In this document: positions 1 through 13,971 of the stretch, in pieces | Numbering within the stretch: the stretch's first letter is position 1 | Layout of the letters: every line of letters begins with the position of its first letter | Origin: Spirochaetales bacterium | GTDB lineage: Bacteria; Spirochaetota; Spirochaetia; JABEVK01 | NCBI GenBank assembly: GCA_037142615.1 | Contig: JBAXAI010000048.1 | Span: forward strand, 1-25,505 | Length of the DNA stretch: 25,505 nucleotides | Direction: 5' to 3' | The notes under the pieces: model-generated | Seen by the model: the letters and a program-made list of their open reading frames with translations, nothing else | What the model was told of the DNA's origin: nothing | Databases searched by the model: none | Position numbers and translations under genes: made by a program

Positions 1-70
1 CGTTCGTCAGGTCCGAAAACGTCAGCATCGAACGCCTCGTGAGAAGATCGGGTTAGTTTCAGCTTGTTGG

Positions 71-1051
71 CTACTTCTGTTGCGGATTCAGAACCAACTG
101 GATGACTTCAGAAGACACTAGTCCCTCTAAGCCACCGGCAAAGGACAGCGACACTGAGTAGATCTTCCCGGGTTCGAACGTTGCTGATACGGGGTCTCCA
201 AACTTGTCCTTGCTGAAAAGTGGGGTCTTGTCCCCAGCCATGACTGGATAAGAACCAGCAGAAAATGGCACGAGTTTGACGTACGGGAGGACATCCGTTG
301 GGAGAACCAGGGAAGCTTCTGCTATCCCTTTCTCGTTCCAGTCGCTCGCAATTTTGAGCTTTGGCCTTCCTGTCTGTACGTGTTGTAGTGAGATGAACGG
401 ATTTACAAGTCCTGCGTCGGGTCCAGCGATGGACCCGGGAATATCGCCGACCAGAATTGCAGATTGGCCGTCCTTGAGAGGAAACATTTGTGTGGGCGAA
501 ATCCCCGTTGAGACCAGTTTCCAGTTCTCCATGTTACGAATCTCGGCCAACCCCTCGCTGCTAAGCGCCAAAACGTAGTCTTTGGTCGCGTCGAGGGTTC
601 CTATTGGCTTGCCGGCAAAGGCAACCTTGCCGTGAAGGGGTGGCGACACTTTGAGGATCACTACCAAGGTTTCCAGCCGAACAATCTTCGGCAAGGGATA
701 GACTTCACCCGACTGAAGTTCGAATGCGGTCTGGCCATCAAATAGGTCGCCTGCAAGGGCGTCAAACAAGCACACTAGGTACTGCGTCGTCCGCGGCTGC
801 GATTCCAATACCACAGCAGATCCCGCGACCTCCGGATACGTTTGCTGAATCTGCTTGCCAAGACTGACCAAGGATGAAAGTCCCACTACCGCCGCAAGGG
901 CTATTCCTGTCCACCACCAGAAGCCGTGTTTTCGCTTGACCTTGTCCTGTCGCGCGTAGGTCTTTGTTCCGAGAGCCAAGTAGTGGCCACAGTGCTTGCA
1001 TTTCAGTGCAGCATCTTGGATTTCTTCCGCGCAAGCTGGACACTTCTTCAT
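71..1051 (-). CDS. Zinc-ribbon (UPF0547-like) membrane protein with large extracytoplasmic C-terminal region, 326 aa
   Basis: ATG at 1051 follows a GAGGA SD, which is preferred over the ORF-track start at 1093. N-terminus MKKCPACAEEIQDAALKCKHCG (CxxC-x10-CxxC) is followed by a TM helix (FWWWTGIALAAVVGLSSLVSL). Confidence 0.8.
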   Translation of the reverse strand: MKKCPACAEEIQDAALKCKHCGHYLALGTKTYARQDKVKRKHGFWWWTGIALAAVVGLSSLVSLGKQIQQTYPEVAGSAVVLESQPRTTQYLVCLFDALAGDLFDGQTAFELQSGEVYPLPKIVRLETLVVILKVSPPLHGKVAFAGKPIGTLDATKDYVLALSSEGLAEIRNMENWKLVSTGISPTQMFPLKDGQSAILVGDIPGSIAGPDAGLVNPFISLQHVQTGRPKLKIASDWNEKGIAEASLVLPTDVLPYVKLVPFSAGSYPVMAGDKTPLFSKDKFGDPVSATFEPGKIYSVSLSFAGGLEGLVSSEVIQLVLNPQQK

Positions 1052-1064
1052 GCGGGCGCGTTCC

Positions 1065-1460
1065 TCAACTACCGGCCAATCGCCCAATAACATTGAGCAA
1101 CGACAGGATTATTCCGATGATCATGAAGACCCAGAGGCTCGAGATTTGTGTCTTCTTTACTGTGGAATTGTTGGGCTTTCCCTTGGAACGAAAGTAGATA
1201 ATGAGACCAATTGGCCAAGAGAAGCTCCAGAGGGCAATCCATAGGTACTTCCCCTTGCCCCATCCACCGAACTTTTTCGGGTCCTTGATTTGACCAACGT
1301 TCCATATTGAGAGTGGCTTCTTCAAACCATAATCGGTGCTCGAATCTTCGATAAGGCTCGCTGCAGTTTCATTCAATACCTTGTCTAGCACCTCACCGCA
1401 GTGTTTGCACTTGGTAGCCTCATCCTGAATCTCTTCCGCGCATGCAGGGCATTTCTTCAT
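1065..1460 (-). CDS. Zinc-ribbon membrane protein, 131 aa, two C-terminal TM helices
   Basis: MKKCPACAEEIQDEATKCKHCG N-terminus; GGAG SD; hydrophobic segments YLWIALWSFSWPIGLIIYF and LWVFMIIGIILSLLNVIG; visibly more AT-rich than core genes. Confidence 0.8.
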   Translation of the reverse strand: MKKCPACAEEIQDEATKCKHCGEVLDKVLNETAASLIEDSSTDYGLKKPLSIWNVGQIKDPKKFGGWGKGKYLWIALWSFSWPIGLIIYFRSKGKPNNSTVKKTQISSLWVFMIIGIILSLLNVIGRLAGS

Positions 1461-1521
1461 AGCATTCTCCAGACTAGTGGTTTAGCTTCCGATTCCTCGA
1501 ATCGTAGGTTCGTACATGGAA

Positions 1522-1579
1522 ACTATGAAGTCTGATAACCCCCATACACAATCAGCAAATTCCCCACCTGACGTGGGCG
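1522..1579 (-). promoter_or_regulatory. Putative activator-dependent promoter of the zinc-ribbon operon (motif copy A)
   Basis: Minus strand TTGTGT-18-CATAGT, preceded by GGTGGGGAATTTGCTGA. Aligns ungapped with 1776-1814. Confidence 0.45.
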
Positions 1580-1589
1580 GCACACACGT

Positions 1590-1751
1590 TCAACGCGGAC
1601 TCACCCTTGTCACCGATTCGCTGAAATAGAGGTTGGCAGTGGTGATTGGGCCTTTTCCGGTTCCCGGGCCTGGTGCGGTCCAGATGCCGACGGCAGCCAA
1701 GACGGAGCCAAGAATCATGGCCAACGCGATACGGAGAGCGAGCCCACGCAT
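1590..1751 (-). CDS. Small secreted/membrane-anchored protein, 53 aa (absent from the ORF track)
   Basis: Translated by hand: MRGLALRIALAMILGSVLAAVGIWTAPGPGTGKGPITTANLYFSESVTRVSPR. Basic N-region plus hydrophobic core resembles a signal peptide. It fills the gap between the regulator and the zinc-ribbon genes on the same strand. Confidence 0.55.
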   Translation of the reverse strand: MRGLALRIALAMILGSVLAAVGIWTAPGPGTGKGPITTANLYFSESVTRVSPR

Positions 1752-1756
1752 GCTTC

Positions 1757-1814
1757 AGGTTGTCGCCGGATGGCTCCCAGGCGCAATAAGAAGTTTCCCC
1801 ACCCGTAGTAGGGG
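1757..1814 (-). promoter_or_regulatory. Putative activator-dependent promoter of the 53-aa ORF (motif copy B)
   Basis: Minus strand TTGCGC-18-CAACCT-5 nt-ATG, preceded by CCCCTACTACGGGTGGGGAAACTTCTTA. Matches copy A at 27 of 39 positions. Confidence 0.45.
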
Positions 1815-1818
1815 CACG

Positions 1819-2457
1819 CTACACCAGCTGGTTCTCCTGCGCGAACTTGAGCAGCTCGACGGGGCCTTTCACGTTGAGCTTGGCGTACACGGCGGCCTTG
1901 TGGTTGTCGGCCGTCTTCGCCGAGATACCGAGCTGGAAGCCGATCGACTTGACCGACTCCCCTTTCAACAAGAGCAGGCACACTTCCCGCTCGCGGACCG
2001 TCAAGGTCTTAAGACCGGCGGGAACTTCCTGTTCACGCTCTGTGTTGGCCAGGTGCCGGGCCAAGGCATCGAGGCTGATCTGGTCGAGGTAGACGTGACC
2101 GGCCACCGCGGAACGAACGGCCTCCAGGAGCACCTTGCCGGCGCTTTCCTTGTTCACAAAGCCCTGGGCGCCTTCGCGCAGCGCCCGCAACACCAAGGCA
2201 CCTTCCCGGAACATCGACAACATCAGCACCCTCAGGCCCGGGAACCGCGTTCGCAGGTCCTTCAAATGATCAAGGCTCACTCCATCGCCAAAGCGGACAT
2301 CGAGCAGCACGAGGTCGGCGGCGCTCGCCTCAAGCACGGGGACCAATTCCTCCAGGCTCGACGCCTCGGTCAGGTGCACGTTCCCTTCCAGGTCGTGCAG
2401 GATGGACTTGAGCCCAGCCCGCACGGTGGTATGGTCGTCAGCGATCACGATGTTCAA
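1819..2457 (-). CDS. NarL/LuxR-family response regulator (REC + HTH)
   Basis: IVIADDH, DLVLLD phospho-acceptor, GFVNK and LTVREREV...LGISAKTADNHKAAVYAKL HTH. TTG start at 2457 follows GGAGG and overlaps the kinase 3' end. Confidence 0.93.
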   Translation of the reverse strand: MNIVIADDHTTVRAGLKSILHDLEGNVHLTEASSLEELVPVLEASAADLVLLDVRFGDGVSLDHLKDLRTRFPGLRVLMLSMFREGALVLRALREGAQGFVNKESAGKVLLEAVRSAVAGHVYLDQISLDALARHLANTEREQEVPAGLKTLTVREREVCLLLLKGESVKSIGFQLGISAKTADNHKAAVYAKLNVKGPVELLKFAQENQLV

Positions 2458-3535
2458 GTGGAACCTCCCACACAATGGTCACTCCCTCGGCCGTCTCCCA
2501 AGACAACCGCCCGCCGAGCAGTTCTGCCCGTTCGCGCATTCCGCGCAGTCCCAACGAACCCGTTCGGGGAACGATGTCTCGCCCGACTCCGTCGTCCCGA
2601 ACCGAGAACTTCAGCCATCCTGCCTCGTGGTGGCCCCGGATGGTGACCTTGGTCGCGTGCGCGTGTTTGGCCACGTTGTTCAGCGCCTCCTGCAGAATCC
2701 GGTAGAGGTGAATGTCGGCCCCTACCGCCAAACCTTTGTCCAGCCCGGGTTCGAGGTCAGCCGTCACGAGAAGCCCCGTTCTGGCGGCAAACTCCTGCAC
2801 CAGGTCGGTCACCGCCCGGCGCAACCCAACCAGGTCCAGAGCAGGGGGGCGCAACCCTTGGGCCAACTGCCTCACCTGGTGCTGGGCCTTGTCGAGGCTG
2901 GCCGCAAGCGCCTCGCGTTCCTGTTCGGGAACGCGCGAAAGGAGCATTTTCGCACCCGCGAGCTCCTGCGCCAACGTATCGTGCAAGTCGAGGGCGATGC
3001 GACGGCGCTCGGCCTCCACCCGTGAGAGCGACAGCCGGTAGCCTTCCTGCAGCTCCTCAAACCGGCGTCGGCGCAACGCCTGTTCTCGTCCCCAAACGAG
3101 GGCAAAGGCGATCAGCGCGACGAAGGCCACCAGGAGGGCCGCCTGAAGTTTGCCAAACGCTGATTCCTGACCGGCAGCGAACCGCTGGAACTGTTCGTCG
3201 AGTCGCGCCGGGAGCGTCGAAGTCTTCAGCAAGTCCAGGTCGCTTTGATTCAGTTCTCCAAGAACTCCCAAGGTTCTGACGGTGGCCGAGCCAGCCAGAT
3301 CCCGCAGCGAGTCGCTCAATCGCGAACGTACCTTCGGAATCACGGGATCGGACTCCGGGAGCAGGTCGAGCAGCTCCAAAGTGTCGGTTACCCGCTGCAG
3401 GCGCACCTGGTCTTCAGCCACCTTCTGGCGCGTATGGGTCGCCGAGGCATAGAGAAACAGCAGTGACGCGAGCACCGTGACCAAAAGCACGACCATGGCT
3501 ACGCCGACCTGGCTGGCCGAATCAAGAACCCTCAT
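2438..3535 (-). CDS. Sensor histidine kinase, HisKA_3 + HATPase_c, two TM helices
   Basis: H-box ERRRIALDLHDTLAQ, N-box LYRILQEALNNVAKHA, DDGVG and GLRGMRERA. Two TM helices flank a ~100-aa extracytoplasmic region. Confidence 0.93.
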   Translation of the reverse strand: MRVLDSASQVGVAMVVLLVTVLASLLFLYASATHTRQKVAEDQVRLQRVTDTLELLDLLPESDPVIPKVRSRLSDSLRDLAGSATVRTLGVLGELNQSDLDLLKTSTLPARLDEQFQRFAAGQESAFGKLQAALLVAFVALIAFALVWGREQALRRRRFEELQEGYRLSLSRVEAERRRIALDLHDTLAQELAGAKMLLSRVPEQEREALAASLDKAQHQVRQLAQGLRPPALDLVGLRRAVTDLVQEFAARTGLLVTADLEPGLDKGLAVGADIHLYRILQEALNNVAKHAHATKVTIRGHHEAGWLKFSVRDDGVGRDIVPRTGSLGLRGMRERAELLGGRLSWETAEGVTIVWEVPLEHRDR

Positions 3536-3574
3536 GTTGCCATTCTAGTGGGTGACACCTAGAATGGGCACATG
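3533..3574. promoter_or_regulatory. Symmetric bidirectional promoter, both genes leaderless
   Basis: CATGTTGCCATTCTAG-10 nt-CTAGAATGGGCACATG, with arms complementary at 14 of 16 positions. TAGAAT lies 6 nt before the ATG on each strand and there is no SD. Confidence 0.7.
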
Positions 3575-4189
3575 AATCTTCGCTCGCGTCCCTTGGTTGT
3601 CGTCGGTGTGATCGTCGCTGCGCTCGGCAACGCCGTCTTGAACTACCTCGACCATGTCCTAAACCTACCCCTGTTCTTCGACAGCTTCTTCACGGCCATC
3701 GGGGCGGCGGTCTATGGTTGGGGTCCGGGGTTGGCCATCGCCATTCTAAGCCAAGTGGCCATCCAGGCGAGCCTTGTCGTGGCCGAGAACATGGTGTGGG
3801 GAATGGCCCTCCCCTTCGTCCTGTGTCAAATCGAAACGGCTCTCGTCATCGGCTTCATGGTCCGTTTCGGGTCGTTCCGCTCGATTCCTTCGCTCATCAT
3901 CGCCGTGTTCGCCGTGGCGCTGGGCAACTCGGTGATCGGCTCACTGGTAGCCACGTTCGTGTTCGGCGGCATCACGCTGCACGGTGCTGACTTCTTGGTG
4001 GCGGGGCTCATCATGGGCGGCCAGAACCTGCTCGAAGCGTCGTTCTGGGCCCGCGTGCCCATTAACCTGGTCGACAAGGGCATCGCGGTGGTCGCGGCCT
4101 ACCTGGTGCTTCAGCGGTGGGGGGCGGCGACCGGGTTGCCCATCAGAATTCCTTCGATGGAGAGATCTTCGTCCAGCGACTCCCAATGA
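3572..4189 (+). CDS. ECF transporter S-component-like integral membrane protein (orphan)
   Basis: About 6 hydrophobic segments; motifs LPLFFDSFFT...GWGPG and C-terminal NLVDK resemble ECF S-component families. No EcfA/EcfT genes in the window. Confidence 0.72.
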   Translation: MNLRSRPLVVVGVIVAALGNAVLNYLDHVLNLPLFFDSFFTAIGAAVYGWGPGLAIAILSQVAIQASLVVAENMVWGMALPFVLCQIETALVIGFMVRFGSFRSIPSLIIAVFAVALGNSVIGSLVATFVFGGITLHGADFLVAGLIMGGQNLLEASFWARVPINLVDKGIAVVAAYLVLQRWGAATGLPIRIPSMERSSSSDSQ

Positions 4190-4368
4190 AGTCCTTGGCC
4201 GCCACCGAGCAATTCGACCTGAAGTAACTCCTCGCGTGTTGCGTGGAACAAGCGCGGCGAGTACGAAAGGGGCACTCCGAGTTGGCGGCCATCGTCCAGA
4301 AGAACCCAGAAGTTGACGTCGTCAAACCAGACCTTCTTCGCGTTGGGGACACTAGTCAAAGTGGTCAT
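4111..4368 (-). CDS. DUF2442-family protein (putative antitoxin)
   Basis: WVLLDDGRQLGVPLSYSPRLFHAT...GLHWESLDEDLSIEGIL signature; GGAGG SD; overlaps the upstream DUF4160 gene. Confidence 0.88.
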   Translation of the reverse strand: MTTLTSVPNAKKVWFDDVNFWVLLDDGRQLGVPLSYSPRLFHATREELLQVELLGGGQGLHWESLDEDLSIEGILMGNPVAAPHR

Positions 4369-4594
4369 GCCATACCTCCCGGATCAGTCGCTCGTTGGCG
4401 GCCACGATCCTCAGTACCCTCGACAACTCGTGCACTGCAAAACCGGAGCTTTCCACAACCTCAATATGAGGATCCAGCCACACTTTGGCTAGGGCAGATC
4501 CCCGCTGAACATGGATGTGTAGGGGTTCTCTCGGCGTGCCCTCGTTGCTGTAAAAGAAGAGACGGAACCCGTGGGATGTGATGACTTTCGCCAT
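4352..4594 (-). CDS. DUF4160-family protein (putative toxin)
   Basis: GFRLFFYSNEG...EPLHIHV...AKVWL...EVWHDHF signature; usual pairing with DUF2442. Confidence 0.88.
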   Translation of the reverse strand: MAKVITSHGFRLFFYSNEGTPREPLHIHVQRGSALAKVWLDPHIEVVESSGFAVHELSRVLRIVAANERLIREVWHDHFD

Positions 4595-4736
4595 ACAACG
4601 AGTAACAAAGCTGACCCACGTTTCACTTGAACAAACTTGAGTGGCCCGCCCTGAGTTCGCCGAAACGGCGCCATTTCCGCAACTTTATCTGCGAAGAACG
4701 CGCGTTTTCCGCCAGTCGCTCGCCGAAGTCGAACGC

Positions 4737-5969
4737 CTAGCTCTTGAGGAGCTTCTGAATGATCTGGGAATTGTCCAGGAGCGAACTCAGTGAGCGGTTG
4801 TGGTGTAACCGACTCATCGCCCTTGCAAACAGGTTGCTGACGTTCGCGACGGTGTACCAGGGGCGGGTGAGCAGGGCATCTTCGTGGTACACGGCGTTGG
4901 TGCCAATGATTTTGGTGAACAGGCCCTTTTCGTAGGCGTCGTCGAAGCTTTTGATGGCGTCGCCGGTAAACAGCGGCAGGCTGATGCCGGCGATGATTTT
5001 TTTGGCACCCATCTCTTTGAGCAGCTGAAAAGCTTTGATGAGCGTGCTGCCGGTGCCCAAAAGGTCGTCGGCCATGAACACGTTTTTGCCGCTCACGTCA
5101 CCGAGCAGTTTGGTGCTGGTGATGTTGCTCTCGCTGGCGCTGGTGCTCAGTTTGCTGTAGTCGCGTTCCTTGTAGAGCATGGCCAGCGGCCGCTGGACAC
5201 AGCTGGCGTAGAACTTATTGCGGTCCACCGCGCCGGTGTCGGGGCTGACAACCACGAGGTCGGGGTCCTTCAGGTCGATCAAGTCGTGCAAGCGGCGCAA
5301 AATCTGGTAGCTACCGTGCAGGTTCTCGAGATTGAGGCGCACGAAGGTGTTCTCGATTTCCTTCGAGTGGATGTCGAGCGTGATGATGCGGTTGACGCCC
5401 ATGTTCTCGAGCATTTGGCCAAAACGGGCCGCCGTGAGGCCTTCGCGTCCTTTCTTCTTGTGCTGGCGGGCGTAGGGGTAGCTGGGAATCACCACCGTGA
5501 CGCTTTCGGCCCCGGCTTGCACGGCGGCATCGACGGCGGTCATCAGGCAGATGATGTGATCGTTGATGCTCAGGGTGAACTTTTCGTCGGAGTGATGGAA
5601 CTTCACCGGGTACATGTTGGCCACGTCCTGAATGATGAACAAGTCCATACCGCGGATCGAAATGCCGATCTCGGTTTTGAACTCACCGTTGGCAAACCGG
5701 GTGAAGCTGCCCGGCACCAGCAGGCGTGGGGGCCGGTACGACGCCACCGAACCCTTGGTGTCGGTCTCACTCGTATGCAGGTCGCTGTCGAGGTTGAGCT
5801 GACGCGTCATGTCCTCACGGCTCAGGCCGTAGCGGCCGGCCATCTCGGCCATCTTCTTGTCAAAATTGCGGTGGTAGATGTTCTTCAGGTGCGAAAGGAT
5901 TTCGCCGGCCAAAGCCTTTCCGCCGGGACAGGCGAGGATGCCCATCGACGCGGGCCGGTTGAAGCTCAT
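4737..5969 (-). CDS. prs: Ribose-phosphate pyrophosphokinase
   Basis: FANGEFK, YPYARQ, ITLDIHS, VVSPDTGA and DDLLGTGST PRPP-binding motif; long N-terminal insert. Confidence 0.95.
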   Translation of the reverse strand: MSFNRPASMGILACPGGKALAGEILSHLKNIYHRNFDKKMAEMAGRYGLSREDMTRQLNLDSDLHTSETDTKGSVASYRPPRLLVPGSFTRFANGEFKTEIGISIRGMDLFIIQDVANMYPVKFHHSDEKFTLSINDHIICLMTAVDAAVQAGAESVTVVIPSYPYARQHKKKGREGLTAARFGQMLENMGVNRIITLDIHSKEIENTFVRLNLENLHGSYQILRRLHDLIDLKDPDLVVVSPDTGAVDRNKFYASCVQRPLAMLYKERDYSKLSTSASESNITSTKLLGDVSGKNVFMADDLLGTGSTLIKAFQLLKEMGAKKIIAGISLPLFTGDAIKSFDDAYEKGLFTKIIGTNAVYHEDALLTRPWYTVANVSNLFARAMSRLHHNRSLSSLLDNSQIIQKLLKS

Positions 5970-5975
5970 GGTCGC

Positions 5976-6022
5976 AGATTAACACAAGCTCCGTTGACCA
6001 TGCAAGGCGGGGGAGTTACATT
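5976..6022. promoter_or_regulatory. Divergent sigma70-type promoters for prs and hflKC
   Basis: Plus strand TTGACC(5994)-17-TACATT(6017), then AAGGAG SD. Minus strand TTGCAT-18-TAATCT-6 nt-ATG of prs. Confidence 0.65.
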
Positions 6023-6045
6023 CATCCCTGTGAAAAGGAGACAAA

Positions 6046-7047
6046 ATGTCTGATCCGAAAATGACAGCCTTTGGGATTAACTTCAGCCCGAAGCTCATCA
6101 TTGCCATCATCGTTCTGGCTCTGGTCGGGTACGCGGTGTTCAGCGCCGTCTACATCGTCGACCAGACCGAAGAGGCCGTGGTGCTTACCTTTGGCAAGTA
6201 CAGCCGTACCGAGGGCCCTGGAATGAAGTTCAAAATTCCGCTGATCGAGGAGAACTTCAACGTTCCCACCAAGGTGGTGCAGAAGATGGACTTCGGGTTC
6301 CGCATGGACAATCAGGAGTTCCTCGGCGGAACCACCGAAGCCGCCCGAGCCAGCTACAAGGATGAGTCCACCATGCTGACCGGCGACCTCAACATCGTCG
6401 ACATCACCTGGATCATCCAGTACCGCATCACCGACCCACGAGCTTGGTTGTTCGGACTCGACAGCAAGGAAAAGACGGTGCGCGACATCAGCCAGTCGGT
6501 GGTGAGCCAACTGGTCGGCGACCGGGCCATCCTCGACATCTTGGGCACCGAGCGCGAAAGCATTCAGGCCAAGGCCACCGAGATGATGAACGATTTGTTC
6601 ACCAGCTACGGTATCGGCGTGTTGGTTACCGGCACCCAGCTCAAGGATATTTTTCCGCCCGAAGGCACCGTCAAGGCCGCCTTCGACGACGTCAACGTCG
6701 CCTTTCAGGACATGAGCCGCTTGATCAACGAAGGTAACGAGACCTACAACAAAGAAATTCCCCGCGCCGCGGGCGAGGCCCAGCAGGCCATCCAGGTGGC
6801 CGAAGGTTACGCCACCGAGCGCGTGAACAAGGCCGTGGGCGACGTCGCCCGCTTCAAAGCCGTGCTCGGTGAATACCGACGCAGCCCCGAAGTCACCCGT
6901 AACCGCCTCTACCTCGAAATGGTCGAAAACGTGTTCGCAGGCCAGGAAGGCACCGACCTCGTCGACAAGAAACTCGGCAGCTTCCTGCCGCTCAAGACCC
7001 TGACTGGCAAGACGAGCGCCCCTGCCGTCGCAGGAGGGACCCAGTAA
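6046..7047 (+). CDS. hflK: FtsH protease modulator HflK (SPFH)
   Basis: N-terminal TM; MLTGDLNIVD, IQYRITDP, AFDDVN, IPRAAGEA and PEVTRNRLYLE motifs; AAGGAG SD. Confidence 0.95.
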   Translation: MSDPKMTAFGINFSPKLIIAIIVLALVGYAVFSAVYIVDQTEEAVVLTFGKYSRTEGPGMKFKIPLIEENFNVPTKVVQKMDFGFRMDNQEFLGGTTEAARASYKDESTMLTGDLNIVDITWIIQYRITDPRAWLFGLDSKEKTVRDISQSVVSQLVGDRAILDILGTERESIQAKATEMMNDLFTSYGIGVLVTGTQLKDIFPPEGTVKAAFDDVNVAFQDMSRLINEGNETYNKEIPRAAGEAQQAIQVAEGYATERVNKAVGDVARFKAVLGEYRRSPEVTRNRLYLEMVENVFAGQEGTDLVDKKLGSFLPLKTLTGKTSAPAVAGGTQ

Positions 7048-8048
7048 TGGCTAAGACCAACAACAACCAGCTGTTCACCATCATCGGCGTGGCCGTGGCG
7101 GTCGTCGTCATCGGCTTTCTGGTGGCCGGTCCGTTCTACCAGATCCGCGAAGGCGAGCAGGCTGTGATCACCCAGTTTGGCGAAGCCGTGGGCACCGAAA
7201 CCACCGCCGGACTCAAGTTCAAGATTCCGCTCATCCAGGAAGCGAACATCTATCCCAAAAAGATCATGAGCTGGGACGGCGAACCACAGCTGATTCCTAC
7301 CCAGGAAAACCAGTTCATCTGGGTCGACAGCACCGCGCGCTGGCGCATCACCGACCTTCGCAAGTTCTACGAGTCGACCAAGACCCTCAGCCGCGCCTAC
7401 AGCCGCTTGGACGAAATCATCGACCCTGCCGTGCGCAAGGTGATCTCGACCAACCCGCTGCAAGAGGCCGTGCGGAGCACCGACATCATCAACGAGACCA
7501 AACGGAGCGGAGCCCTCACGGGGGCCAACGGTGAGGAAATCGAGGCGCTCAAGAGCCTGATCAGCAGCAACACCGACTTCAACGCCATCAAGACCGGTCG
7601 GCGCAAGATCAGCCAGGAAGTGCTGGCGGGGGTCAAGACGAACATCCAGACCCAGTTCGGCATCGAGATCATCGACGTGCTGATCCGCCAGATCCGTTAC
7701 AGCGACCAACTGACCGAGTCGGTGTACAGCCGCATGATCACCGAACGTAAGCAGTTGGCCGAAGGCTACCGCAGCTACGGTCAGGGCAAAAAGCAGGAAC
7801 TGTTGGGCAAGATGGAACGCGAGAAGAAGTCGTTGCTGTCGGAAGCGTATGCCAAGGCCGAACAAGTCAAGGGTGACGCCGACGCCAAGGCTGCACGCAT
7901 CTATTCTGACGCGTATGGGTCCGATCCGGAGTTCTACAACTTCTGGAAATCGATCGAAAGTTACAAGACGACGATGCCGCAGTTCCAGAAGACCATGACC
8001 ACCGACATGGACTACTTCAAGTACCTGTACTCGCCAAGAGGCCGGTAG
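7047..8048 (+). CDS. hflC: FtsH protease modulator HflC (SPFH)
   Basis: VITQFG, GLKFKIP, VYSRMITER and DPEFYNFWKS motifs; TAATG coupling to hflK. Confidence 0.95.
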   Translation: MAKTNNNQLFTIIGVAVAVVVIGFLVAGPFYQIREGEQAVITQFGEAVGTETTAGLKFKIPLIQEANIYPKKIMSWDGEPQLIPTQENQFIWVDSTARWRITDLRKFYESTKTLSRAYSRLDEIIDPAVRKVISTNPLQEAVRSTDIINETKRSGALTGANGEEIEALKSLISSNTDFNAIKTGRRKISQEVLAGVKTNIQTQFGIEIIDVLIRQIRYSDQLTESVYSRMITERKQLAEGYRSYGQGKKQELLGKMEREKKSLLSEAYAKAEQVKGDADAKAARIYSDAYGSDPEFYNFWKSIESYKTTMPQFQKTMTTDMDYFKYLYSPRGR

Positions 8049-8057
8049 CCAAGCGTT

Positions 8058-8879
8058 TCAGGAAGACTTCGGTGCTCGCATCGGAGTCTTCCAAATAACC
8101 CAGGCCGACTCCCAAGCCTTCGGCAAGGGGGTCGGCCGCACCTTCGAAGGGAATCGCCAACAAAAGGCCTCGTAGCTTTCCCGCACCAGACTCGCCCGAT
8201 CCGGCAGGGTTTCAGGCAGAACCACCAGAAAATCGCGGTCGCCGATCCGCCCGCAAAAGTCGCTCTTGCGCAAACCGGCCTTGAGCACGTTGCCGGCCTT
8301 GCGAAGCACGTCGTCGTCCACCTCGGGCCCGCCGAGCTTGAGCCACAGGACAGCCACATGGCCACCGTAGCGTACAAAGCGCTGAAATTCGATCTCGAGC
8401 AGTTCGAGCACCCACCGCCGGTTGGCCAGACTTGTCAGTTGGTCTTCACGCTCGTCGCCGGTCGACGCGGGTGCCTCACGCACGTCATACAGGAGCAACA
8501 CGCCGCCGACCGCCTCTCGCTCGGGGTTGTACACCCTCCGAAACACCCCGTGCAGCAACACCGGCAGGCCGCGAGGGTCGCAGAGCTCCAACGGCCCTTC
8601 CGAGTCGGCCAAACCGAGCGACGAAATCGCCAGCAGCGAATCACGGGTGTCGGTTCCTTGGGCGAGGAAGGTAAGTTCACGGTTGAGGCTGTATTCATCG
8701 GCCCAACCCAAGCGCCGCGAAAAGGCCGGGTTGACGGCTTCGATGGTGCCATCGGTGCGCAAAAAGATCACCAGATCGCGAGTCTGCTCAACAAGGAACG
8801 ACGCGGTTTCCGGTGACCCGGCTACCACGGGCGCGCTGTTGGGTATCCATTGCGAAAGCCAACTCTGCCAAAGACCCAT
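8058..8879 (-). CDS. PAS + degenerate GGDEF protein; C-terminus apparently frameshifted (alternative frame ends at 8017)
   Basis: PAS (DGTIEAVNPAF), DQLTSLANRR, RKSD I-site and GDRDF at the GGDEF position; GGAGG SD and TATACT upstream. Confidence 0.78.
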   Translation of the reverse strand: MGLWQSWLSQWIPNSAPVVAGSPETASFLVEQTRDLVIFLRTDGTIEAVNPAFSRRLGWADEYSLNRELTFLAQGTDTRDSLLAISSLGLADSEGPLELCDPRGLPVLLHGVFRRVYNPEREAVGGVLLLYDVREAPASTGDEREDQLTSLANRRWVLELLEIEFQRFVRYGGHVAVLWLKLGGPEVDDDVLRKAGNVLKAGLRKSDFCGRIGDRDFLVVLPETLPDRASLVRESYEAFCWRFPSKVRPTPLPKAWESAWVIWKTPMRAPKSS

Positions 8880-8989
8880 CGGGCCTCCATTTTTCTGTGA
8901 GTATACGCCCGTTTCGGGGGGCGCGCAATCGAAAGGTGGGCCCTGTGCGAGCGGCCGGTTTTCCGCTATGTTGAAGGCAGGAGTCTCCG

Positions 8990-9982
8990 ATGTTGTTTGC
9001 CCGTTTGTTGTTCCTTTTGGCCGTCCTGGCTGTTCCCTTAGGGGCCCTACCCGCCACGCTCGCCGTCTTCATTCCCGGAGCCTTGCAGGGGAGCCCCACC
9101 TACGAACTGCTCGACGCCGGTGTGCGCAAAGCGGCGGCCGAAGTCGCGGGAACCAAGGTCAAGACCATCGAAGGTGGCTTCAACCAGGCGCAGTGGGGCG
9201 AGCAACTCGCGACCCTGGCAGCCAGCGGCGACTACCAACTGATTGTCACCTCGAACCCAGCCATGCCCGAAATCTGCCTGCCCATCGCCGAGGCGTATCC
9301 GAAGCAGCGATTCCTGATTCTGGAATCCTGGTCGACCAATCCGTCGTTTGCCACCTTGTCGTACAACCACCGCGAGCTGGCCTACCTCCATGGGGCCCTG
9401 GCTGGACTTTTGGTCCAGGCCCGAAAAGGGACCCCGACAGTGGGACTCATCGCCGGGCAGGAGTACCCCGACATGAACAACGCCATCGTTCCCGGTTTTC
9501 GCGAGGGCTTTCAGTCCGTGCTCGCGGGGGGCAAAGTAGAGTTCCGCGTGGTGGGCAACTGGTATGATGCGCAAAAGGGCGCTGAACTGGCCAAGGGCTT
9601 GTTCGACCAAGGTGTTTCGGTGGTGTTGCCCATCGCCGGAGGCGCCAACCAGGGCGTGGTCTCGGCCGCCAAACAGGCTGGCAAGTCGGTGCTGTGGTAC
9701 GACAACGATGGCTACAGCGTCGAAAAGGGCACGGTTGTCGGCAGCGGCGTGATCCATCAGGACACAGCGGCCTACCAAATGGTGAAAAAGGCGTTGGCCG
9801 GCACCTTGGCGTACGGTAAGCCGGTGGTGGTCGGTTTCAAAGAAGGGTACCTCGACTATGTCACGGCGGCCCCCGCGTACGTGGCGGCGGTTCCCGCTTC
9901 CGTGCGCGCCACGTTCGAGGCGCTGGTGGTCCAGTTCCGCACTGGCAAGAAGACTCTTCCGGCACTCCTCACGCAGAACTGA
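8990..9982 (+). CDS. BMP-family ABC transporter substrate-binding protein (nucleoside/purine type)
   Basis: Signal peptide; GNWYDAQKGAELAKGLFDQGVSVVLPIAGGANQGV motif; AGGAG SD; first gene of an ABC operon. Confidence 0.9.
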   Translation: MLFARLLFLLAVLAVPLGALPATLAVFIPGALQGSPTYELLDAGVRKAAAEVAGTKVKTIEGGFNQAQWGEQLATLAASGDYQLIVTSNPAMPEICLPIAEAYPKQRFLILESWSTNPSFATLSYNHRELAYLHGALAGLLVQARKGTPTVGLIAGQEYPDMNNAIVPGFREGFQSVLAGGKVEFRVVGNWYDAQKGAELAKGLFDQGVSVVLPIAGGANQGVVSAAKQAGKSVLWYDNDGYSVEKGTVVGSGVIHQDTAAYQMVKKALAGTLAYGKPVVVGFKEGYLDYVTAAPAYVAAVPASVRATFEALVVQFRTGKKTLPALLTQN

Positions 9983-11436
9983 TGGCCGTTCTGGCGACGC
10001 TGTCGCACCTGAGCAAAACCTTTCCCGACAACGGAGTACGGGCGGTCGACGACGTGAGCCTGGAGCTGAACGAAGGCGAGGTGCTCGCGCTCCTGGGCGA
10101 GAACGGCGCCGGCAAGACCACCCTGATGGCTTTGCTCGCAGGACTTTTGGCCCCCGACGAGGGCGAGGTTTTTCTGGCTTCGGGCCTCAGCCCGGGTTTG
10201 GCGGCCGGCATCGCGCTGGTGCAACAACACCCGCCTTTTTCGCCCGAACTCCACCTGTGGGAGCACGCCATTCTAGGGCTCCCCGGTCGCCACCTCGAAA
10301 AGAAGGAGGCCGTGGTCACCCTGAACGCTGCGGTCGCTCGCTGGGGATTCCAGCTCGACTGGCACCAATTGTGCCGCGACGCCGGGCCTTTGGCTCTGCA
10401 AAAGGCGACCTTGACGGCGTTCTTTTTGCATCCGCTGCGTCTGCTGATCCTCGATGAACCGACGGCGGCGCTCGGTCCCCACGAGGCCGAAACTCTGCTC
10501 GAGGGCGTGCGGGCCTGGACCCGCGAAACGCAGGCCTGTGCGGTGTTCGTGACGCACAAGCTGGCCGAAAGCCTGGGGTGGGCCGACCGCATCGCGGTGA
10601 TGCGCTCAGGACGCCTGGAGGCCCTGACCACGCCCGCACACACCAGCCTGGAGCACCTGAGTCAACTTCTGTTTCCGTCGGGCCTGGCTGCGACTGTGCC
10701 CGAAGATCCTTTGCCGCCGGTCGAAGCCACGTTGCCGCCGGTGTTTGTCGCCCGTGGCACCAGGGCCGACTTCTCGCTCCGGGCGGGTGAAATCCTCGGT
10801 TTGACCTCGCTGCGAGGGGAAGGCGCGGAAGACCTCGAGGAAGAGCTTACGGGTCTGTCGCCGCTCCCGGAGGGTCAGCTGTTTCTGGGTGGCACCGACG
10901 TCAGCCAGCACAGCATTGCTGGGTTGCGTCGTCTGGGGCTCAGCTACGTGCCCAGCGACCGGATGGGGCGAGGTTCCAGCCCGCATTCGCCCCTGGCGAG
11001 CAACGTGATCCCTTACCAGGCCACCCGCCTGGCCCCGGGAGGCATTTTGAGGCGCGCCTCGGTGAGGGGCTACTTCCGTTCGCTGGCCAAACGGTTCTCG
11101 CTGCAGGGTGAGCCGGGGCAAAAACTGGTCACGTTGTCGGGCGGCAACATCCAAAAACTCATCTTGGCCCGCGAGATGGACCAGGGACCGCGCGTTCTGC
11201 TTCTGGCCGAACCCTCGTGGGGCCTCGACCTCGAAGCCCGCCGCGAGCTCTACCGGCTGATCCGGCTGGCTGCCCGCAAGGGGAGCGCGGTGGTCATTCT
11301 CAGTTCCGAACCGCAAGAACTGCTCGAGGTGTGTACCCGCATCGGCGTGCTTCGCGCGGGTCGTCTGCAAGGCGAGCGCCCCACCAGCCAGTGGTCGCTG
11401 GAAAGTCTGGGCCGTGAATTGCTGGGGGTATCGTGA
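9982..11436 (+). CDS. ABC transporter ATP-binding protein with tandem NBDs (CUT2 type)
   Basis: Walker A GENGAGKT, LILDEPT, VTHKL; second NBD with YVPSDR and LSGGNIQK. Confidence 0.93.
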   Translation: MAVLATLSHLSKTFPDNGVRAVDDVSLELNEGEVLALLGENGAGKTTLMALLAGLLAPDEGEVFLASGLSPGLAAGIALVQQHPPFSPELHLWEHAILGLPGRHLEKKEAVVTLNAAVARWGFQLDWHQLCRDAGPLALQKATLTAFFLHPLRLLILDEPTAALGPHEAETLLEGVRAWTRETQACAVFVTHKLAESLGWADRIAVMRSGRLEALTTPAHTSLEHLSQLLFPSGLAATVPEDPLPPVEATLPPVFVARGTRADFSLRAGEILGLTSLRGEGAEDLEEELTGLSPLPEGQLFLGGTDVSQHSIAGLRRLGLSYVPSDRMGRGSSPHSPLASNVIPYQATRLAPGGILRRASVRGYFRSLAKRFSLQGEPGQKLVTLSGGNIQKLILAREMDQGPRVLLLAEPSWGLDLEARRELYRLIRLAARKGSAVVILSSEPQELLEVCTRIGVLRAGRLQGERPTSQWSLESLGRELLGVS

Positions 11437-12485
11437 ATCCACAGGCGAAACGGCCGAACCCGCTGATCGGCTTTGCCAGCACGGCCATTGCCCTGGCCGT
11501 CGCGCTGGGCACCACCGTGGTTCTGCTGTTGTTGTTTGGCAGCGACCCGGCGCACGCGCTAACGAGCTTTTTTGGGGGGCCTTTTTCGTCGTCGTTGGCC
11601 TGGGGCAACACGCTCAACCAGACTTCGCTGCTCATCCTCACAGGTTTGGCGGCGTCGGTGGCCTTTGGATCGGGCAGTTTCAACCTCGGCGGCGAAGGCC
11701 AGATCTACCTCGGCGGCCTGGGAGCTCTGGCTGCCGCGCTGGTGTTGCCGCCCGGCTGGGGGATTGTGGGCCTTGGCCTGGCCTTGTGCGCCGGAGTGCT
11801 CGCGGGCGGGGTTTGGGGGGGGCTCAGCGGCGCGCTCAAGGCGCGGTGGGAGGCCGACGAGCTGATCACGACCTTCCTGCTGTCGGCGGCCATCATCCCG
11901 GTTGTCGACAGCCTGATCACCAGCCCGCTGTTTGCTTCGGCGGGCAGTTACCTCATCACGTCACGCAAGATACCCCACGAGTTCTGGCTGGCCGGTCTGT
12001 TGCCGCCGTCGAACCTTCACGCGGGCGCGCTGCTGGTCTTGCCTTTGGTGGTCGTCCTCGGAGTTCTGATCAGTTCGACGCCGTGGGGCTACCGGCTCCG
12101 GCTTTTGGGACGCAGCCGGGCTTTCGCGCACTACACCGGCATCTCGTTGGCAAGGTACAGTTTGTTGCCCTTGGGGCTGTCGGGAGGCCTGCACGGGCTC
12201 GCCGGAGCGCTGGGCGTGCTGGGCACGCAGCACGCGCTGGTGCAGGGCTTTTCGAGCGGTTGGGGCTGGAACGGCATCGCGGTGGCCCTGATCGCGCGCA
12301 CCAATCCCTGGGCCGTGGTTCCGGCGGCGCTGCTGTTCACCTTTCTGGACCAGGCGGCCCGGACCGTGGTGTTGCAGGGCCAGTTTCCGTTCCAGCTGAG
12401 CGCGCTGTTCCAGGCGGCTATTTTGTTCTTCATCACGGCGCAGTTGGTACCGGTGGCCCGTCGCAAGCTGCGAGGCAAACCGTGA
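11433..12485 (+). CDS. ABC transporter permease (BPD_transp_2)
   Basis: FNLGGEGQ, GWGWNGIAVALIA and multiple TM helices; GTGA overlap with the ATPase. Confidence 0.92.
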   Translation: MNPQAKRPNPLIGFASTAIALAVALGTTVVLLLLFGSDPAHALTSFFGGPFSSSLAWGNTLNQTSLLILTGLAASVAFGSGSFNLGGEGQIYLGGLGALAAALVLPPGWGIVGLGLALCAGVLAGGVWGGLSGALKARWEADELITTFLLSAAIIPVVDSLITSPLFASAGSYLITSRKIPHEFWLAGLLPPSNLHAGALLVLPLVVVLGVLISSTPWGYRLRLLGRSRAFAHYTGISLARYSLLPLGLSGGLHGLAGALGVLGTQHALVQGFSSGWGWNGIAVALIARTNPWAVVPAALLFTFLDQAARTVVLQGQFPFQLSALFQAAILFFITAQLVPVARRKLRGKP

Positions 12486-13330
12486 GCCTTCCGTTTGACC
12501 TGTTTACGCCGTTATTGCTGGCCGCGCTCGGCGCCTTGCTGTCCGAGCGCGCGGGGATCCTGAACATCGCCCTCGAGGGCCAGATGCTGGGTGGTGCGTT
12601 CACGGCGATTCTGGTGCAACAGTTGACGGGGAACCTGGCGCTGACAGCCCTTGCGGTGGTGAGTTTCGGCGCGGCCACAAGCCTGCTCCTGGCGTGGGGA
12701 ACCTTGAAGCTCAAGGCAGACCCCTTCATCGCGGCGCTGGGCCTCAACCTGCTGATCCCCGCCGTGATCGGCTGGGTTTCGTTCAGCTTGTTCGGCAACC
12801 AGGGCGTCATCCGGCTGAACGAAGCCTTTTCGCCCCAGCTCGGCGGCGTCAAACTGACCTTTGTCGCGGCGTTGGCGCTGGCGGTCGTCGTGCACGGCGT
12901 GCTGTTTCACACCTCGTGGGGGCTGCAACTGCGGGCCAGCGGCACGTCCGAAGACTTGGTGGCGAGCCGGGGCTTGAACAGCAACCGACTCAAGACGACG
13001 GCGTTGGTCCTTTCAGGGGTGCTGGGCGCTCTGGGCGGCGCGGTGTTGTCGCTCAACCTCGGCGCGTGGGTTCAAGGCATCAGCGCCGGCAAGGGCTGGA
13101 TCGCGCTGGTGGCCCTGTACCTCGGGCTGCGCCGACCTTTGCCGTTGATGGCCGCCTGCCTCCTGCTGGCTTGGACGCAACAGGCCTCGGGCTTCCTGCA
13201 GGGTCTGCCGGAACTGCCTCAGGGGCTCCTACTCGGGTTGCCTTCGCTCGTGACGGTCGTGGTGTTTGTGATTACCAGCGCCACCCAACGGGGCCGTCAG
13301 CGAAAGTCGGCCAAGCCCATTTCGCGGTAA
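12482..13330 (+). CDS. ABC transporter permease (BPD_transp_2), second subunit
   Basis: GTG start at 12482 in a GTGA overlap; LLAALGALLSERAGILNIALEG and AGKGWIALVA motifs. Confidence 0.92.
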   Translation: MSLPFDLFTPLLLAALGALLSERAGILNIALEGQMLGGAFTAILVQQLTGNLALTALAVVSFGAATSLLLAWGTLKLKADPFIAALGLNLLIPAVIGWVSFSLFGNQGVIRLNEAFSPQLGGVKLTFVAALALAVVVHGVLFHTSWGLQLRASGTSEDLVASRGLNSNRLKTTALVLSGVLGALGGAVLSLNLGAWVQGISAGKGWIALVALYLGLRRPLPLMAACLLLAWTQQASGFLQGLPELPQGLLLGLPSLVTVVVFVITSATQRGRQRKSAKPISR

Positions 13331-13971
13331 GTATGGATCACGCGGTCCACGCCGGCAGCGGTCACTTTGGCCTTTCCGGCCTCGTCGCTCCAGATGCCGT
13401 AGACCTTGCCGGCCCCGGCGGCGCGCGCGGCTTGAATGCCCAGCACACCGTCTTCCACGACCAGGCAATGTTCGGGCTTCACACCCAGGCGGGCGATGGC
13501 CAACGAAAAGAGCGCCGGGTCGGGCTTGCCCGGCATGGTGCCGTCGTCAAACACGATGCGCTCGGGCCGGAACCAACGGTGCAGGCCGAAGGTTTCAATG
13601 TAAAACTCGACGTTGCTTCTGCCCGACGCCGTGCCGATAGCGATTTCGATGCCGTTGGCCAAACAAAGCTCGAAGAGTTCGACGGCGCCATCGACCAGTG
13701 TGACGCGATGGGGCATCGAAAGCAGCATCTCGCGGTAGATCGCCTCTTTCTCTTCTGAAAGCGTGTGCACCTCGGCAGGCGTCGCCTCGCGCCCCAGGAT
13801 ATCGGGCCAGATTTCGCGGTTGGTGCGGCCCACATACCCATGATGGAACTCGTCATCGCTGAGCGTACGACCGAGGTGAGTCTCGGCGATGCGTCGCCAC
13901 ACGATCTCGTGCAAGTCCATGTCCCAGAGCAACGTGCCGTTAAAGTCAAAAACAATTCCGCGGTAGCTCAT
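13297..13971 (-). CDS. HAD-family phosphatase (beta-PGM-like, DxN motif I)
   Basis: IVFDFNGTL, GKPDP and LVVEDG...GIQAARAAG motifs; GGAGG SD; ATGA overlap with rbgA. Confidence 0.9.
   Translation of the reverse strand: MSYRGIVFDFNGTLLWDMDLHEIVWRRIAETHLGRTLSDDEFHHGYVGRTNREIWPDILGREATPAEVHTLSEEKEAIYREMLLSMPHRVTLVDGAVELFELCLANGIEIAIGTASGRSNVEFYIETFGLHRWFRPERIVFDDGTMPGKPDPALFSLAIARLGVKPEHCLVVEDGVLGIQAARAAGAGKVYGIWSDEAGKAKVTAAGVDRVIHTYREMGLADFR

Follow-up and report, generated by a model that had tools for sequence, protein, structure and literature searches.

Gene Organization of the Locus

The DNA analyzed here (the window) is a stretch of 25,505 nucleotides, which is the entire 25.5-kb contig JBAXAI010000048.1 of a Spirochaetales bacterium (assembly GCA_037142615.1; genome of 4.27 Mb, 96.7% complete). 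The subject of the analysis is a gene in it for a 205-residue membrane protein that resembles the S component found in transporters of the energy-coupling factor (ECF) type. This gene is read divergently from the genes of a sensor histidine kinase and a response regulator, downstream of which lie a short open reading frame (ORF) and two genes for zinc-ribbon membrane proteins. All six ORFs were recovered as described in an earlier note on this DNA, which had been made from the sequence without database searches; they are listed with the other features in Table 1. The closest public loci are from uncultured Spirochaetota, and the stretch is also found in freshwater metagenome runs, none of the 17 sequencing runs that hold it being of RNA.

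The kinase has a first transmembrane (TM) segment at about residues 10–31, an outer loop of about 95 residues, and a second TM segment at about residues 127–150, which is followed by HisKA_3 and HATPase_c with no HAMP domain in between. All four domains of the kinase and regulator (HisKA_3, HATPase_c, REC, and GerE) exceed the Pfam cut-offs and the two genes overlap on the same strand, and the pair is a HisKA_3/NarL-type two-component system. Against NCBIfam, the kinase gives partial matches to UhpB (E 1.7e-28) and LiaS (E 7.6e-23). Judged by comparison with the orthologue at L009, the closest relative of the locus, the regulator probably starts at the TTG at 2460.

The divergent start codons of the S gene and the kinase gene are separated by only 36 bp, which fall within an inverted repeat of two 17-nt arms (3532–3548 and 3559–3575; 88% complementary). 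The spacer contains the promoter-like site TTGCCA-17-TAGAAT (10/12 match; the scan of positions 1–4700 gave 1 site versus 1.4 expected), and either strand carries a TAGAAT box ending 6 nt ahead of its start codon. The spacing of 36 bp is the same at L009 (5965–6000), where both starts have a −10-like box 6 nt ahead of them, and the divergent S/kinase spacer of L002 (1451–1473) likewise has −10-like boxes 6–7 nt before the starts, with no Shine-Dalgarno sequence across these spacers. Of the two paralogous S genes elsewhere in the genome, on contigs C5 and C45, the former has TATCAT 6 nt ahead of its ATG, and the latter differs in having a GGAGG leader. This layout suggests overlapping, mutually exclusive divergent promoters that would yield leaderless mRNAs. 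The symmetric promoter which the earlier note had assigned jointly to the S gene and the kinase operon is thereby recovered as a palindromic spacer with two overlapping promoter-like sites.

S components of group I have their EcfA/EcfA′/EcfT module in the same operon, and those of group II use a shared one. The absence of EcfA and EcfT partners, likewise asserted in the earlier note, holds for the whole window. Its sole ATP-binding cassette (ABC) ATPase has a binding protein of the Bmp/PnrA type on one side and a BPD_transp_2 permease on the other and belongs to an ordinary importer. The single CbiQ/EcfT match in the genome is on another contig, in a BioY-EcfA-EcfT operon.

Table 1. Positions of the features of the window and of fused S-domain proteins at related loci (aa, amino acids)
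Feature	Position	Strand	Basis or remark
S-component-like six-helix membrane protein, 205 aa	3572–4189	+	ORF, profile matches, AF2, VIA-align, tree
Divergent control region with 36-bp spacer (3536–3571)	3532–3575		Inverted repeat, promoter-like sites
Sensor histidine kinase, 365 aa	2438–3535	−	HisKA_3 E 8e-9, HATPase_c E 2e-12
NarL/LuxR-type response regulator	1819–2475	−	Response_reg E 7.5e-18, GerE E 1.3e-13
Motif copy A, GTGCC-N9-GGTGGGGAA	1791–1817	−	3 nt past regulator stop codon
53-aa ORF, signal-peptide-like N-terminus	1590–1751	−	Unverified gene
Motif copy B, GTGCC-N10-GGTGGGGAA	1558–1584	−	6 nt past stop of 53-aa ORF
ZnR131, zinc-ribbon membrane protein, 131 aa	1065–1460	−	Zn_ribbon_3 E 2.6e-7
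ZnR340, zinc-ribbon single-TM protein, outer domain of ~250 aa	71–1093	−	ORF, Pfam; likely start 1051
DUF2442/DUF4160 gene pair	4111–4594	−	Pfam E 4e-22, 3e-16
prs (phosphoribosyl pyrophosphate synthetase)	4737–5969
GGDEF-domain gene	8058–8879	−
Bmp/PnrA-type importer, binding protein	8990–9982
Bmp/PnrA-type importer, double ATPase	9982–11436
Bmp/PnrA-type importer, permease	11433–12485
S + propeller + HD-GYP proteins	L125 2011–5541; L126 1329–4988; L127 1160–4732
S fused directly to HD-GYP, ~700–720 aa	L130 917–3034; L067, L081, L083		Bacillota and Spirochaetota

Family and Fold of the S-Component-Like Protein

At the level of sequence profiles, the 205-residue protein matches PF12822 in Pfam with E 6e-4 (20.2 bits, under the cut-off of 30.7) and, more strongly, NF045596, the "CD3073 family putative ECF S component", with E 2e-19 (70 bits, a partial match under the cut-off of 180). 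The AF2 (AlphaFold2) model, computed from a 42-sequence alignment, has six helices with a pLDDT of 91.6 and a pTM of 0.86. When this model was compared with known structures by VIA-align, the top 19 rows were all ECF S components (Z 10.2–14.5), the next fold following at Z 8.9. The best match is RibU (5kbw_B; Z 14.5, root-mean-square deviation (rmsd) 3.3 Å, 161 residues), and RibU, ThiT, FolT, BioY, and PanT align at an rmsd of about 3–4 Å over 150–165 residues. The best chains in Foldseek were ThiT, FolT, RibU, BioY, and PanT, with TM-scores of 0.5–0.6 and all at E ≥0.05; the fold is thus assigned from these TM-scores and the VIA-align Z-scores and not from the Foldseek E-values. Given the AF2 model and the VIA-align ranking, the S-component fold can be taken as established for the predicted structure. 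The protein gives no match to PF07694 (5TMR-LYT) in Pfam at E ≤0.1, has no extra helix H0, ends after helix 6, and is unfused. On balance, we think that it descends from a true S component of an ECF transporter, of a CD3073-like family.

Genomic Neighborhoods of the Homologues

The genome itself encodes three S paralogues, each of them beside a kinase, and the two best paralogues of the window kinase in this genome are precisely the kinases that adjoin the other two S genes. The S gene and the kinase gene are divergent in the window and on C5, while on C45 the order is S, kinase, regulator, with the TGA stop of the S gene overlapping the GTG start of the kinase gene (GTGA), so that the two genes may be translationally coupled.

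A pattern and tblastn scan of the GTDB species genomes gave 171 relatives, of which the best 80 loci were kept, and the neighbors were called by phmmer with the kinase, regulator, EcfA, and EcfT of the bacterium's own genome as queries. A related kinase was found within 2.5 kb of the S gene in 26 of the 80 loci (22 of them also with a NarL-type regulator), EcfA/EcfT in 31, and neither of the two in 23. When searched against Pfam, 16 of the 26 kinases gave HisKA_3 (E ≤1e-6), 8 gave HATPase_c only, 1 gave HisKA_2 with dCache, and 1 gave no match. The same database resolved part of the 23 remaining loci into 7 Desulfobacterota hybrid kinases, 1 neighboring HisKA_2 kinase, and 1 neighboring methyl-accepting chemotaxis protein (MCP); among these loci there are also 3 Bacillota proteins of about 720 residues in which the S domain is fused to HD-GYP, beside GGDEF genes.

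In the 7 Desulfobacterota loci (L055, L056, L062, L063, L066, L068, and L069, at about 6000–10000 in each), the gene that comes next after the S gene, in the same orientation, encodes a hybrid kinase with SBP_bac_3 (periplasmic), PAS, HisKA, HATPase_c, and REC domains, with or without Hpt. The S proteins of these loci form a separate monophyletic group (support 94–98), and this group is an independent second coupling of S-component genes to a kinase.

Phylogeny and Natural Fusions

A first tree of 81 sequences (IQ-TREE, LG+C20, quick search; the partial sequences L017 and L077 were left out) contains a clade of 34 sequences with an SH-aLRT support of 100 and not a single ECF-linked member: 26 of its genes are adjacent to a HisKA_3 kinase, 1 to a HisKA_2 kinase, and 1 to an MCP gene, and 6 are without a signaling neighbor. 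The nearest sisters are 9 sequences from Treponema, Clostridia, and others, and the 7 sister loci that were sampled have ABC_tran, CbiQ, and major facilitator superfamily (MFS) neighbors by Pfam, in the order EcfA-EcfA′-S-EcfT-MFS.

The S family (E ≤1e-10) is present in 57 of the 401 Spirochaetota genomes searched. A second tree of 115 homologues, to which these phylum-wide sequences (their loci with flanks of 1.5 kb only) and six fused proteins had been added, places the window protein in a Spirochaetota clade of 40 sequences with a support of 98. This clade comprises 30 kinase-adjacent members, 1 fusion, 1 HisKA_2-adjacent and 1 MCP-adjacent member, 6 with none of these, and 1 with a short flank, and none of the 43 ECF-linked sequences falls inside it. 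The kinase label changes 7 times on the tree versus a mean of 26.9 for shuffled labels (0/500 shuffles were as low), a result that shows clustering only, because relatives share labels. Within the clade the arrangement of the genes varies (divergent, convergent, S followed by histidine kinase and response regulator (S-HK-RR), or HK-RR-S), and the adjacency is still kept; blastp clustering of the ORFs within 5 kb of clade members gave no recurrent family other than the S protein, the kinase, and the regulator. A count of HisKA_3/LuxR-type versus ecfAT neighbors, which the earlier note had named as a check on its reading, thus comes out on the side of the kinase for the Spirochaetota clade, which adjoins HisKA_3/NarL genes and never ecfA or ecfT.

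In several cases the S domain and a signaling domain are joined in one protein. L128, which comes from a genome in the same class, consists of one ORF of 547 residues with an S domain at 4–187, a linker, two TM segments with a loop of about 38 residues between them, HisKA_3, and HATPase_c, and so amounts to an S protein joined to an entire two-TM kinase. Within the clade it is nested as the sister of three HK-RR-S operons (support 96), its exact place being less sure than its membership of the clade because of a long branch (1.79). P0009 (1001 residues) and P0010 (711 residues) carry the S domain ahead of DUF4118, in part PAS, HisKA, HATPase_c, and, variably, REC (hhalign probability 98.5), and P0011, an S::EcfT fusion, is their counterpart on the transporter side. 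There are also Spirochaetota proteins of about 1200 residues in which the S domain is followed by a Reg_prop propeller and HD-GYP, with Y_Y_Y found in one of the three, and shorter proteins in which S and HD-GYP are fused directly (Table 1). The HD-GYP fusions of the S domain often lie beside GGDEF genes, which suggests cyclic di-GMP signaling with an S-component input.

Conserved Residues and Predicted Complex with the Kinase

The conservation of the S proteins was analyzed in a set of 42, made up of 33 clade members and 9 ECF-linked sisters. Eleven columns are invariant in all 42 (N20, P33, D37, T41, N119, G133, D140, F158, N165, D168, and K169), and 20 more positions are near-invariant and common to the kinase-linked and the ECF-linked groups. 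Since the invariant columns are shared by both groups, the putative pocket looks retained, and the invariant residues may well line it.

The two groups differ in helix 1. Positions 16 and 24, which flank N20, are each small in 42 of the 43 ECF-linked sequences versus 22 and 26, respectively, of the 40 clade sequences, and position 23 is Gly in 18/43 versus 3/40; the window protein has A16 and N24. In PMC11109136, an AxxxA motif in helix 1 of the S components studied is described as the docking site for EcfT and as lost in 5TMR kinases and in MreD. The change in the clade appears to parallel this loss, provided that the positions correspond to those of the motif.

On the kinase side, the alignment of 22 partner kinases shows M1 and then no invariant column until E174, with the outer loop varying in both length and sequence. 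When residues 1–200 of the kinase (22-sequence alignment) were folded together with residues 1–192 of the S protein (42-sequence alignment), the predicted complex reached an ipSAE of 0.55 (runs 0.49, 0.55, and 0.59), the best of three controls being 0.00; the runs share at least 93% of the contacts, with a partner pLDDT of at least 81. Of 157 solved complexes, 116 attain the pass mark used for such predictions, as do 2 of 215 mismatched pairs, and passing scores of 0.60 or less comprise only 18 of the 157 solved complexes plus both of the passing mismatches. This prediction, also named as a check in the earlier note, is therefore clear of its controls and weak in its grade, and it is counted as modest support because the genomic prior is strong.

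Proposed Model and Alternatives

In the model that we favor, the S protein has, in one Spirochaetota lineage, left EcfAA′T and become the ligand-binding partner of a two-TM HisKA_3 kinase, a reading that we hold to be probable, with considerable reserve. A small molecule would be bound at the outer face of the membrane, in the conserved pocket amid the six helices, following which a rearrangement, possibly the first part of the "toppling" of an S component, would be passed on within the membrane to the TM1/TM2 hairpin of the kinase. This would change the autophosphorylation at His185, and hence the state of the NarL-type regulator, which would probably act at least on the palindromic 36-bp promoter, thereby autoregulating both transcription units. 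The earlier note had described the S protein as a detached co-receptor for the kinase and not a transporter; the linkage throughout the clade, the fusions, and, weakly, the predicted complex speak for that description, which stops short of proof.

It has to be noted that a number of observations weigh against this model. No kinase is nearby in 6 of the 40 clade members (two of these loci, L039 and L049, being cut by contig ends). The putative pocket residues are identical in the ECF-linked sisters, so that the protein could still transport, and the change in helix 1 looks like a relaxation, not a loss, with A16 kept in the window protein. The score of 0.55 for the complex lies in the band graded as weak support, and the window kinase carries an outer loop of its own that could sense alone. 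EcfT is encoded not only in the bacterium's own genome but also in 5/5 other carrier genomes tested, which rules out the idea that carrier genomes lack EcfT; since every carrier tested has it, the S protein could dock to an ECF module encoded elsewhere. Finally, a solitary S transporter controlled by the kinase and regulator would be just as likely to show conserved adjacency, divergent promoters, and shared operons.

This last alternative, in which the S protein is a transporter, either by itself, in the manner of some BioY and BtuM proteins, or borrowing BioMN/EcfAT, and the kinase and regulator are its dedicated transcriptional control, with the kinase sensing through its own loop, is in our view rather unlikely but has to be taken seriously. 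Besides the identity of the pocket and the presence of EcfT, it would explain why the divergent genes share a palindromic control region and why the HK-RR-S operons (L113, L121, and L123) place the S gene last, as a regulated target would be; solitary S components that transport are, moreover, reported in the Discussion of PMC11109136. Against it, the fusions to HisKA_3, to hybrid kinases, and to HD-GYP are hard to square with a freely toppling subunit, and on C45 it is the S gene that comes first and overlaps the start of the kinase. The outer loop, through which the kinase would have to sense, is without a conserved residue, the small residues of helix 1 are relaxed in the clade, and the only ECF module of the bacterium's own genome is a dedicated BioY operon. 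The predicted complex, weak as its grade is, stands against a best control of 0.00.

A second alternative, which we consider improbable, takes the S protein as a ligand-independent accessory subunit, that is, a scaffold or inhibitor that sets the activity of the kinase or reports the state of the membrane or envelope, its S-component ancestry being incidental. LiaF is a comparable accessory subunit for LiaS, and the window kinase resembles the intramembrane- and envelope-stress HisKA_3 kinases (the partial LiaS match); an envelope theme is also suggested by the neighboring zinc-ribbon membrane proteins and the putative secreted protein. The Caulobacter membrane protein HmrC, which is reported to be S-component-like by I-TASSER, is proposed in PMC11481889 to act upstream of HmrA as a sensor of copper and temperature stress. 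This alternative is opposed by the 11 invariant polar or small residues, which extend to true S components among the 42 proteins and point to a retained specific site, and by the range of outputs to which the same domain is connected (HisKA_3 kinases, HisKA hybrid kinases, HD-GYP, and an adjacent MCP), which is typical of an input domain.

If the model of a kinase-partnered S protein is extended to the family as a whole, a stepwise conversion can be envisaged, in which an EcfAA′T-linked S component would first turn into an S protein that stands alone and is coupled to a kinase in trans, as in the window, and would then be fused to HisKA_3 kinases, hybrid kinases, or HD-GYP, the same pocket being reused, partial toppling serving as the signal to the TM helices of the kinase, and at least three lineages (Spirochaetota, Desulfobacterota, and Bacillota) having gone through the process independently. 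We offer this scheme tentatively, as something that is conceivable but still short of probable.

Relation to Known Systems

S components and the 5TMR-LYT (PF07694) sensor kinases, BtsS, YpdA, and LytS among them, were shown by Partipilo and Slotboom (2024; PMC11109136), in connection with the idea of an "S-component fold" transceptor, to share a fold, the origin of which is there called unresolved. These kinases resemble the system described here in that a membrane domain of S-component fold is, or in the present case would be, the input of a kinase and in that the small-residue motif of helix 1 is lost or, in the clade, apparently relaxed. They differ from it in that, according to the same text, their domain is fused, carries the extra helix H0, and is S-like in fold only, whereas the window protein is a stand-alone protein of six helices, is detectably related in sequence to EcfAA′T-linked S components, and is paired with a HisKA_3 kinase. 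The words "operon", "adjacent", "gene neighbo", and "stand-alone" do not occur in that text, and stand-alone S genes paired with kinases are not discussed in it.

Among the S components proper, the CD3073-family proteins (NF045596) have the family, the fold, and the 11 invariant columns in common with the window protein and form the sister groups in the trees; their genes sit in ecfAA′T operons, whereas the window protein is without an ecf neighbor and scores 70 bits versus the cut-off of 180.

Transporter-like proteins are known as co-sensors in the UhpC-UhpB-UhpA system of E. coli and in the BceAB-BceS and DctA-DcuS pairs. In UhpC/UhpB, a transporter homologue takes the part of ligand receptor toward a membrane kinase that is a protein of its own and of the HisKA_3/NarL class, and this is the part proposed here for the S protein. 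Unlike the window protein, none of these co-sensors is an ECF S component, UhpC being an MFS protein and the others ABC or DctA-type carriers. HmrC, from the HmrABCX system of Caulobacter crescentus, has five predicted TM helices, no conserved domain by BLAST, and a likeness to S components by I-TASSER. It is similar to the window protein in being a small stand-alone polytopic protein whose gene accompanies that of a kinase, and genetic evidence places it upstream of the kinase as the proposed environmental sensor (PMC11481889). It belongs to another kinase pathway and another phylum, and the two proteins are set side by side by their descriptions only. In a literature search, in which subscription journals were thinly covered, no paper turned up in which PF12822-type S components that stand alone are paired with kinases, nor one that names "CD3073".

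The fixed, and sometimes fused, partnership with a kinase points to a route from a transporter part to a receptor, and, because transporter-linked, kinase-adjacent, and kinase-fused members belong to one alignable family and are cleanly separated on the tree, this transition is directly testable. If the model is correct, the S proteins of this clade would be a new class of accessory sensor for HisKA_3 kinases and would provide a handle on signaling in poorly studied free-living spirochaetes, and the ECF-linked sisters offer a path to the ligand of the kinase-paired S proteins.

P0012 is a relative fused to an inosine-uridine nucleoside hydrolase domain, and a Kaistia locus (L070) is flanked by two genes for such hydrolases (4777–5724 and 7664–8680). 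From these cases one may suspect that a nucleoside-like substrate is handled by some of the ECF-linked members, and this is a possible guide to the ligand. In one Spirochaetota family (f24) there are tandem arrays of 3–4 S paralogues (G104:C3:151266-152974, G120:C9:51424-53858, and others), and most of the loci fetched from this family adjoin EcfA.

The Zinc-Ribbon Cassette and the Repeated Motif

The earlier note had further proposed that the zinc-ribbon genes and the 53-residue ORF, preceded by two copies of one promoter motif, are the regulon of the kinase and regulator. Parts of this description are confirmed: Pfam zinc-ribbon families are found at the N-termini of both downstream proteins, the two motif copies exist, and the ORF has a signal-peptide-like N-terminus. 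The proposal itself found no support, as the genes are not conserved with the module, the cassette evolves separately, and the motif is unsupported as a promoter or operator.

The exact 9-mer GGTGGGGAA occurs at 1560–1568 and 1795–1803, its sole exact copies in the window, with GTGCC preceding each, and both copies of the motif start within 10 nt 3′ of a stop codon. It is not enriched in the genome (53 found versus 50.7 expected), the one extra match to the extended motif, on C62, lies within a coding sequence, and the scan of positions 1–4700 predicted no promoter-like site at either copy. A reading of the copies as terminators was rejected, their hairpins being no better than those of shuffled sequences (z −0.19 for copy A; +1.0) and no terminator-like site being predicted. 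The two copies flank the 53-residue ORF about 235 bp apart, so that an insertion could have left them behind as repeats, in which case they would not be regulatory sites. The ORF has no relative in the bacterium's own genome or in the 80 loci, for which reason it is treated as an unverified gene.

Neither ZnR340 nor ZnR131 has a relative at the 80 loci, and ZnR340 is absent from 11/11 other genomes of the order, including four of the same genus. The only other copy of the outer domain of ZnR340 in the genome is on C45 (33% identity over 255 residues by tblastn), where it adjoins the S/kinase module, a hint in favor of a link. The Atlas record of ZnR340 starts at residue 15, and only its zinc ribbon is recognized, because the Atlas matches stay below 0.8, with TM-scores below 0.32.

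Comparison with contigs from other freshwater runs shows 4 differences over 114–1578 (1465 nt), divergence at equal length over 1579–1661, 82 differences in 1662–2392, and 170 in 2399–4712. The strain with the near-identical cassette thus differs by 7–16% in its regulator, kinase, and S genes, and motif copy B, together with the 3′ half of the 53-residue ORF, is where the break between the strains falls. From this sharp boundary it follows that the zinc-ribbon cassette is a separately exchanged unit, which is still located downstream of the regulator.

At L009, the regulator is followed by an unrelated 62-residue single-TM ORF (3925–4113, minus strand) and then by a 461-residue ORF; GCGGGTGGGG lies upstream of the 62-residue ORF, and a stretch of GGGTGGGG is also found downstream of the regulator there. 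Despite the lack of sequence similarity, it may be a recurring theme that the regulator has a small membrane peptide downstream of it.

That the adjacency of the genes is meaningless for the window copy, or that the downstream genes are a regulon with GGTGGGGAA as the operator, is very improbable: the two exact 9-mers with their shared flank in consecutive intergenic gaps, the GCGGGTGGGG stretch ahead of another small TM ORF at L009, and the location of both genomic copies of the ZnR340 outer domain next to an S/kinase module are outweighed by the absence of enrichment and of promoter-like sites at copies that follow stop codons, by the absence of the zinc-ribbon genes and the 53-residue ORF from the 80 loci and from 11/11 other genomes of the order, and by the near-identity of the cassette (4/1465 nt) in a strain with a diverged module.

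Other Genes in the Window

On the other side of the module, the DUF2442/DUF4160 gene pair lies between the S gene and prs. The pair is missing from the syntenic locus L009, and in run X3 there is a contig in which 4203 is directly followed by 4724, so that the pair is left out. It has the look of a small insertion that varies between strains and is possibly toxin-antitoxin-like. Beyond prs, which separates the S/kinase module from them, follow, in the stretch 8058–13758, the GGDEF-domain gene and, next to it, the Bmp/PnrA-type ABC importer, both at 4–9 kb from the module.

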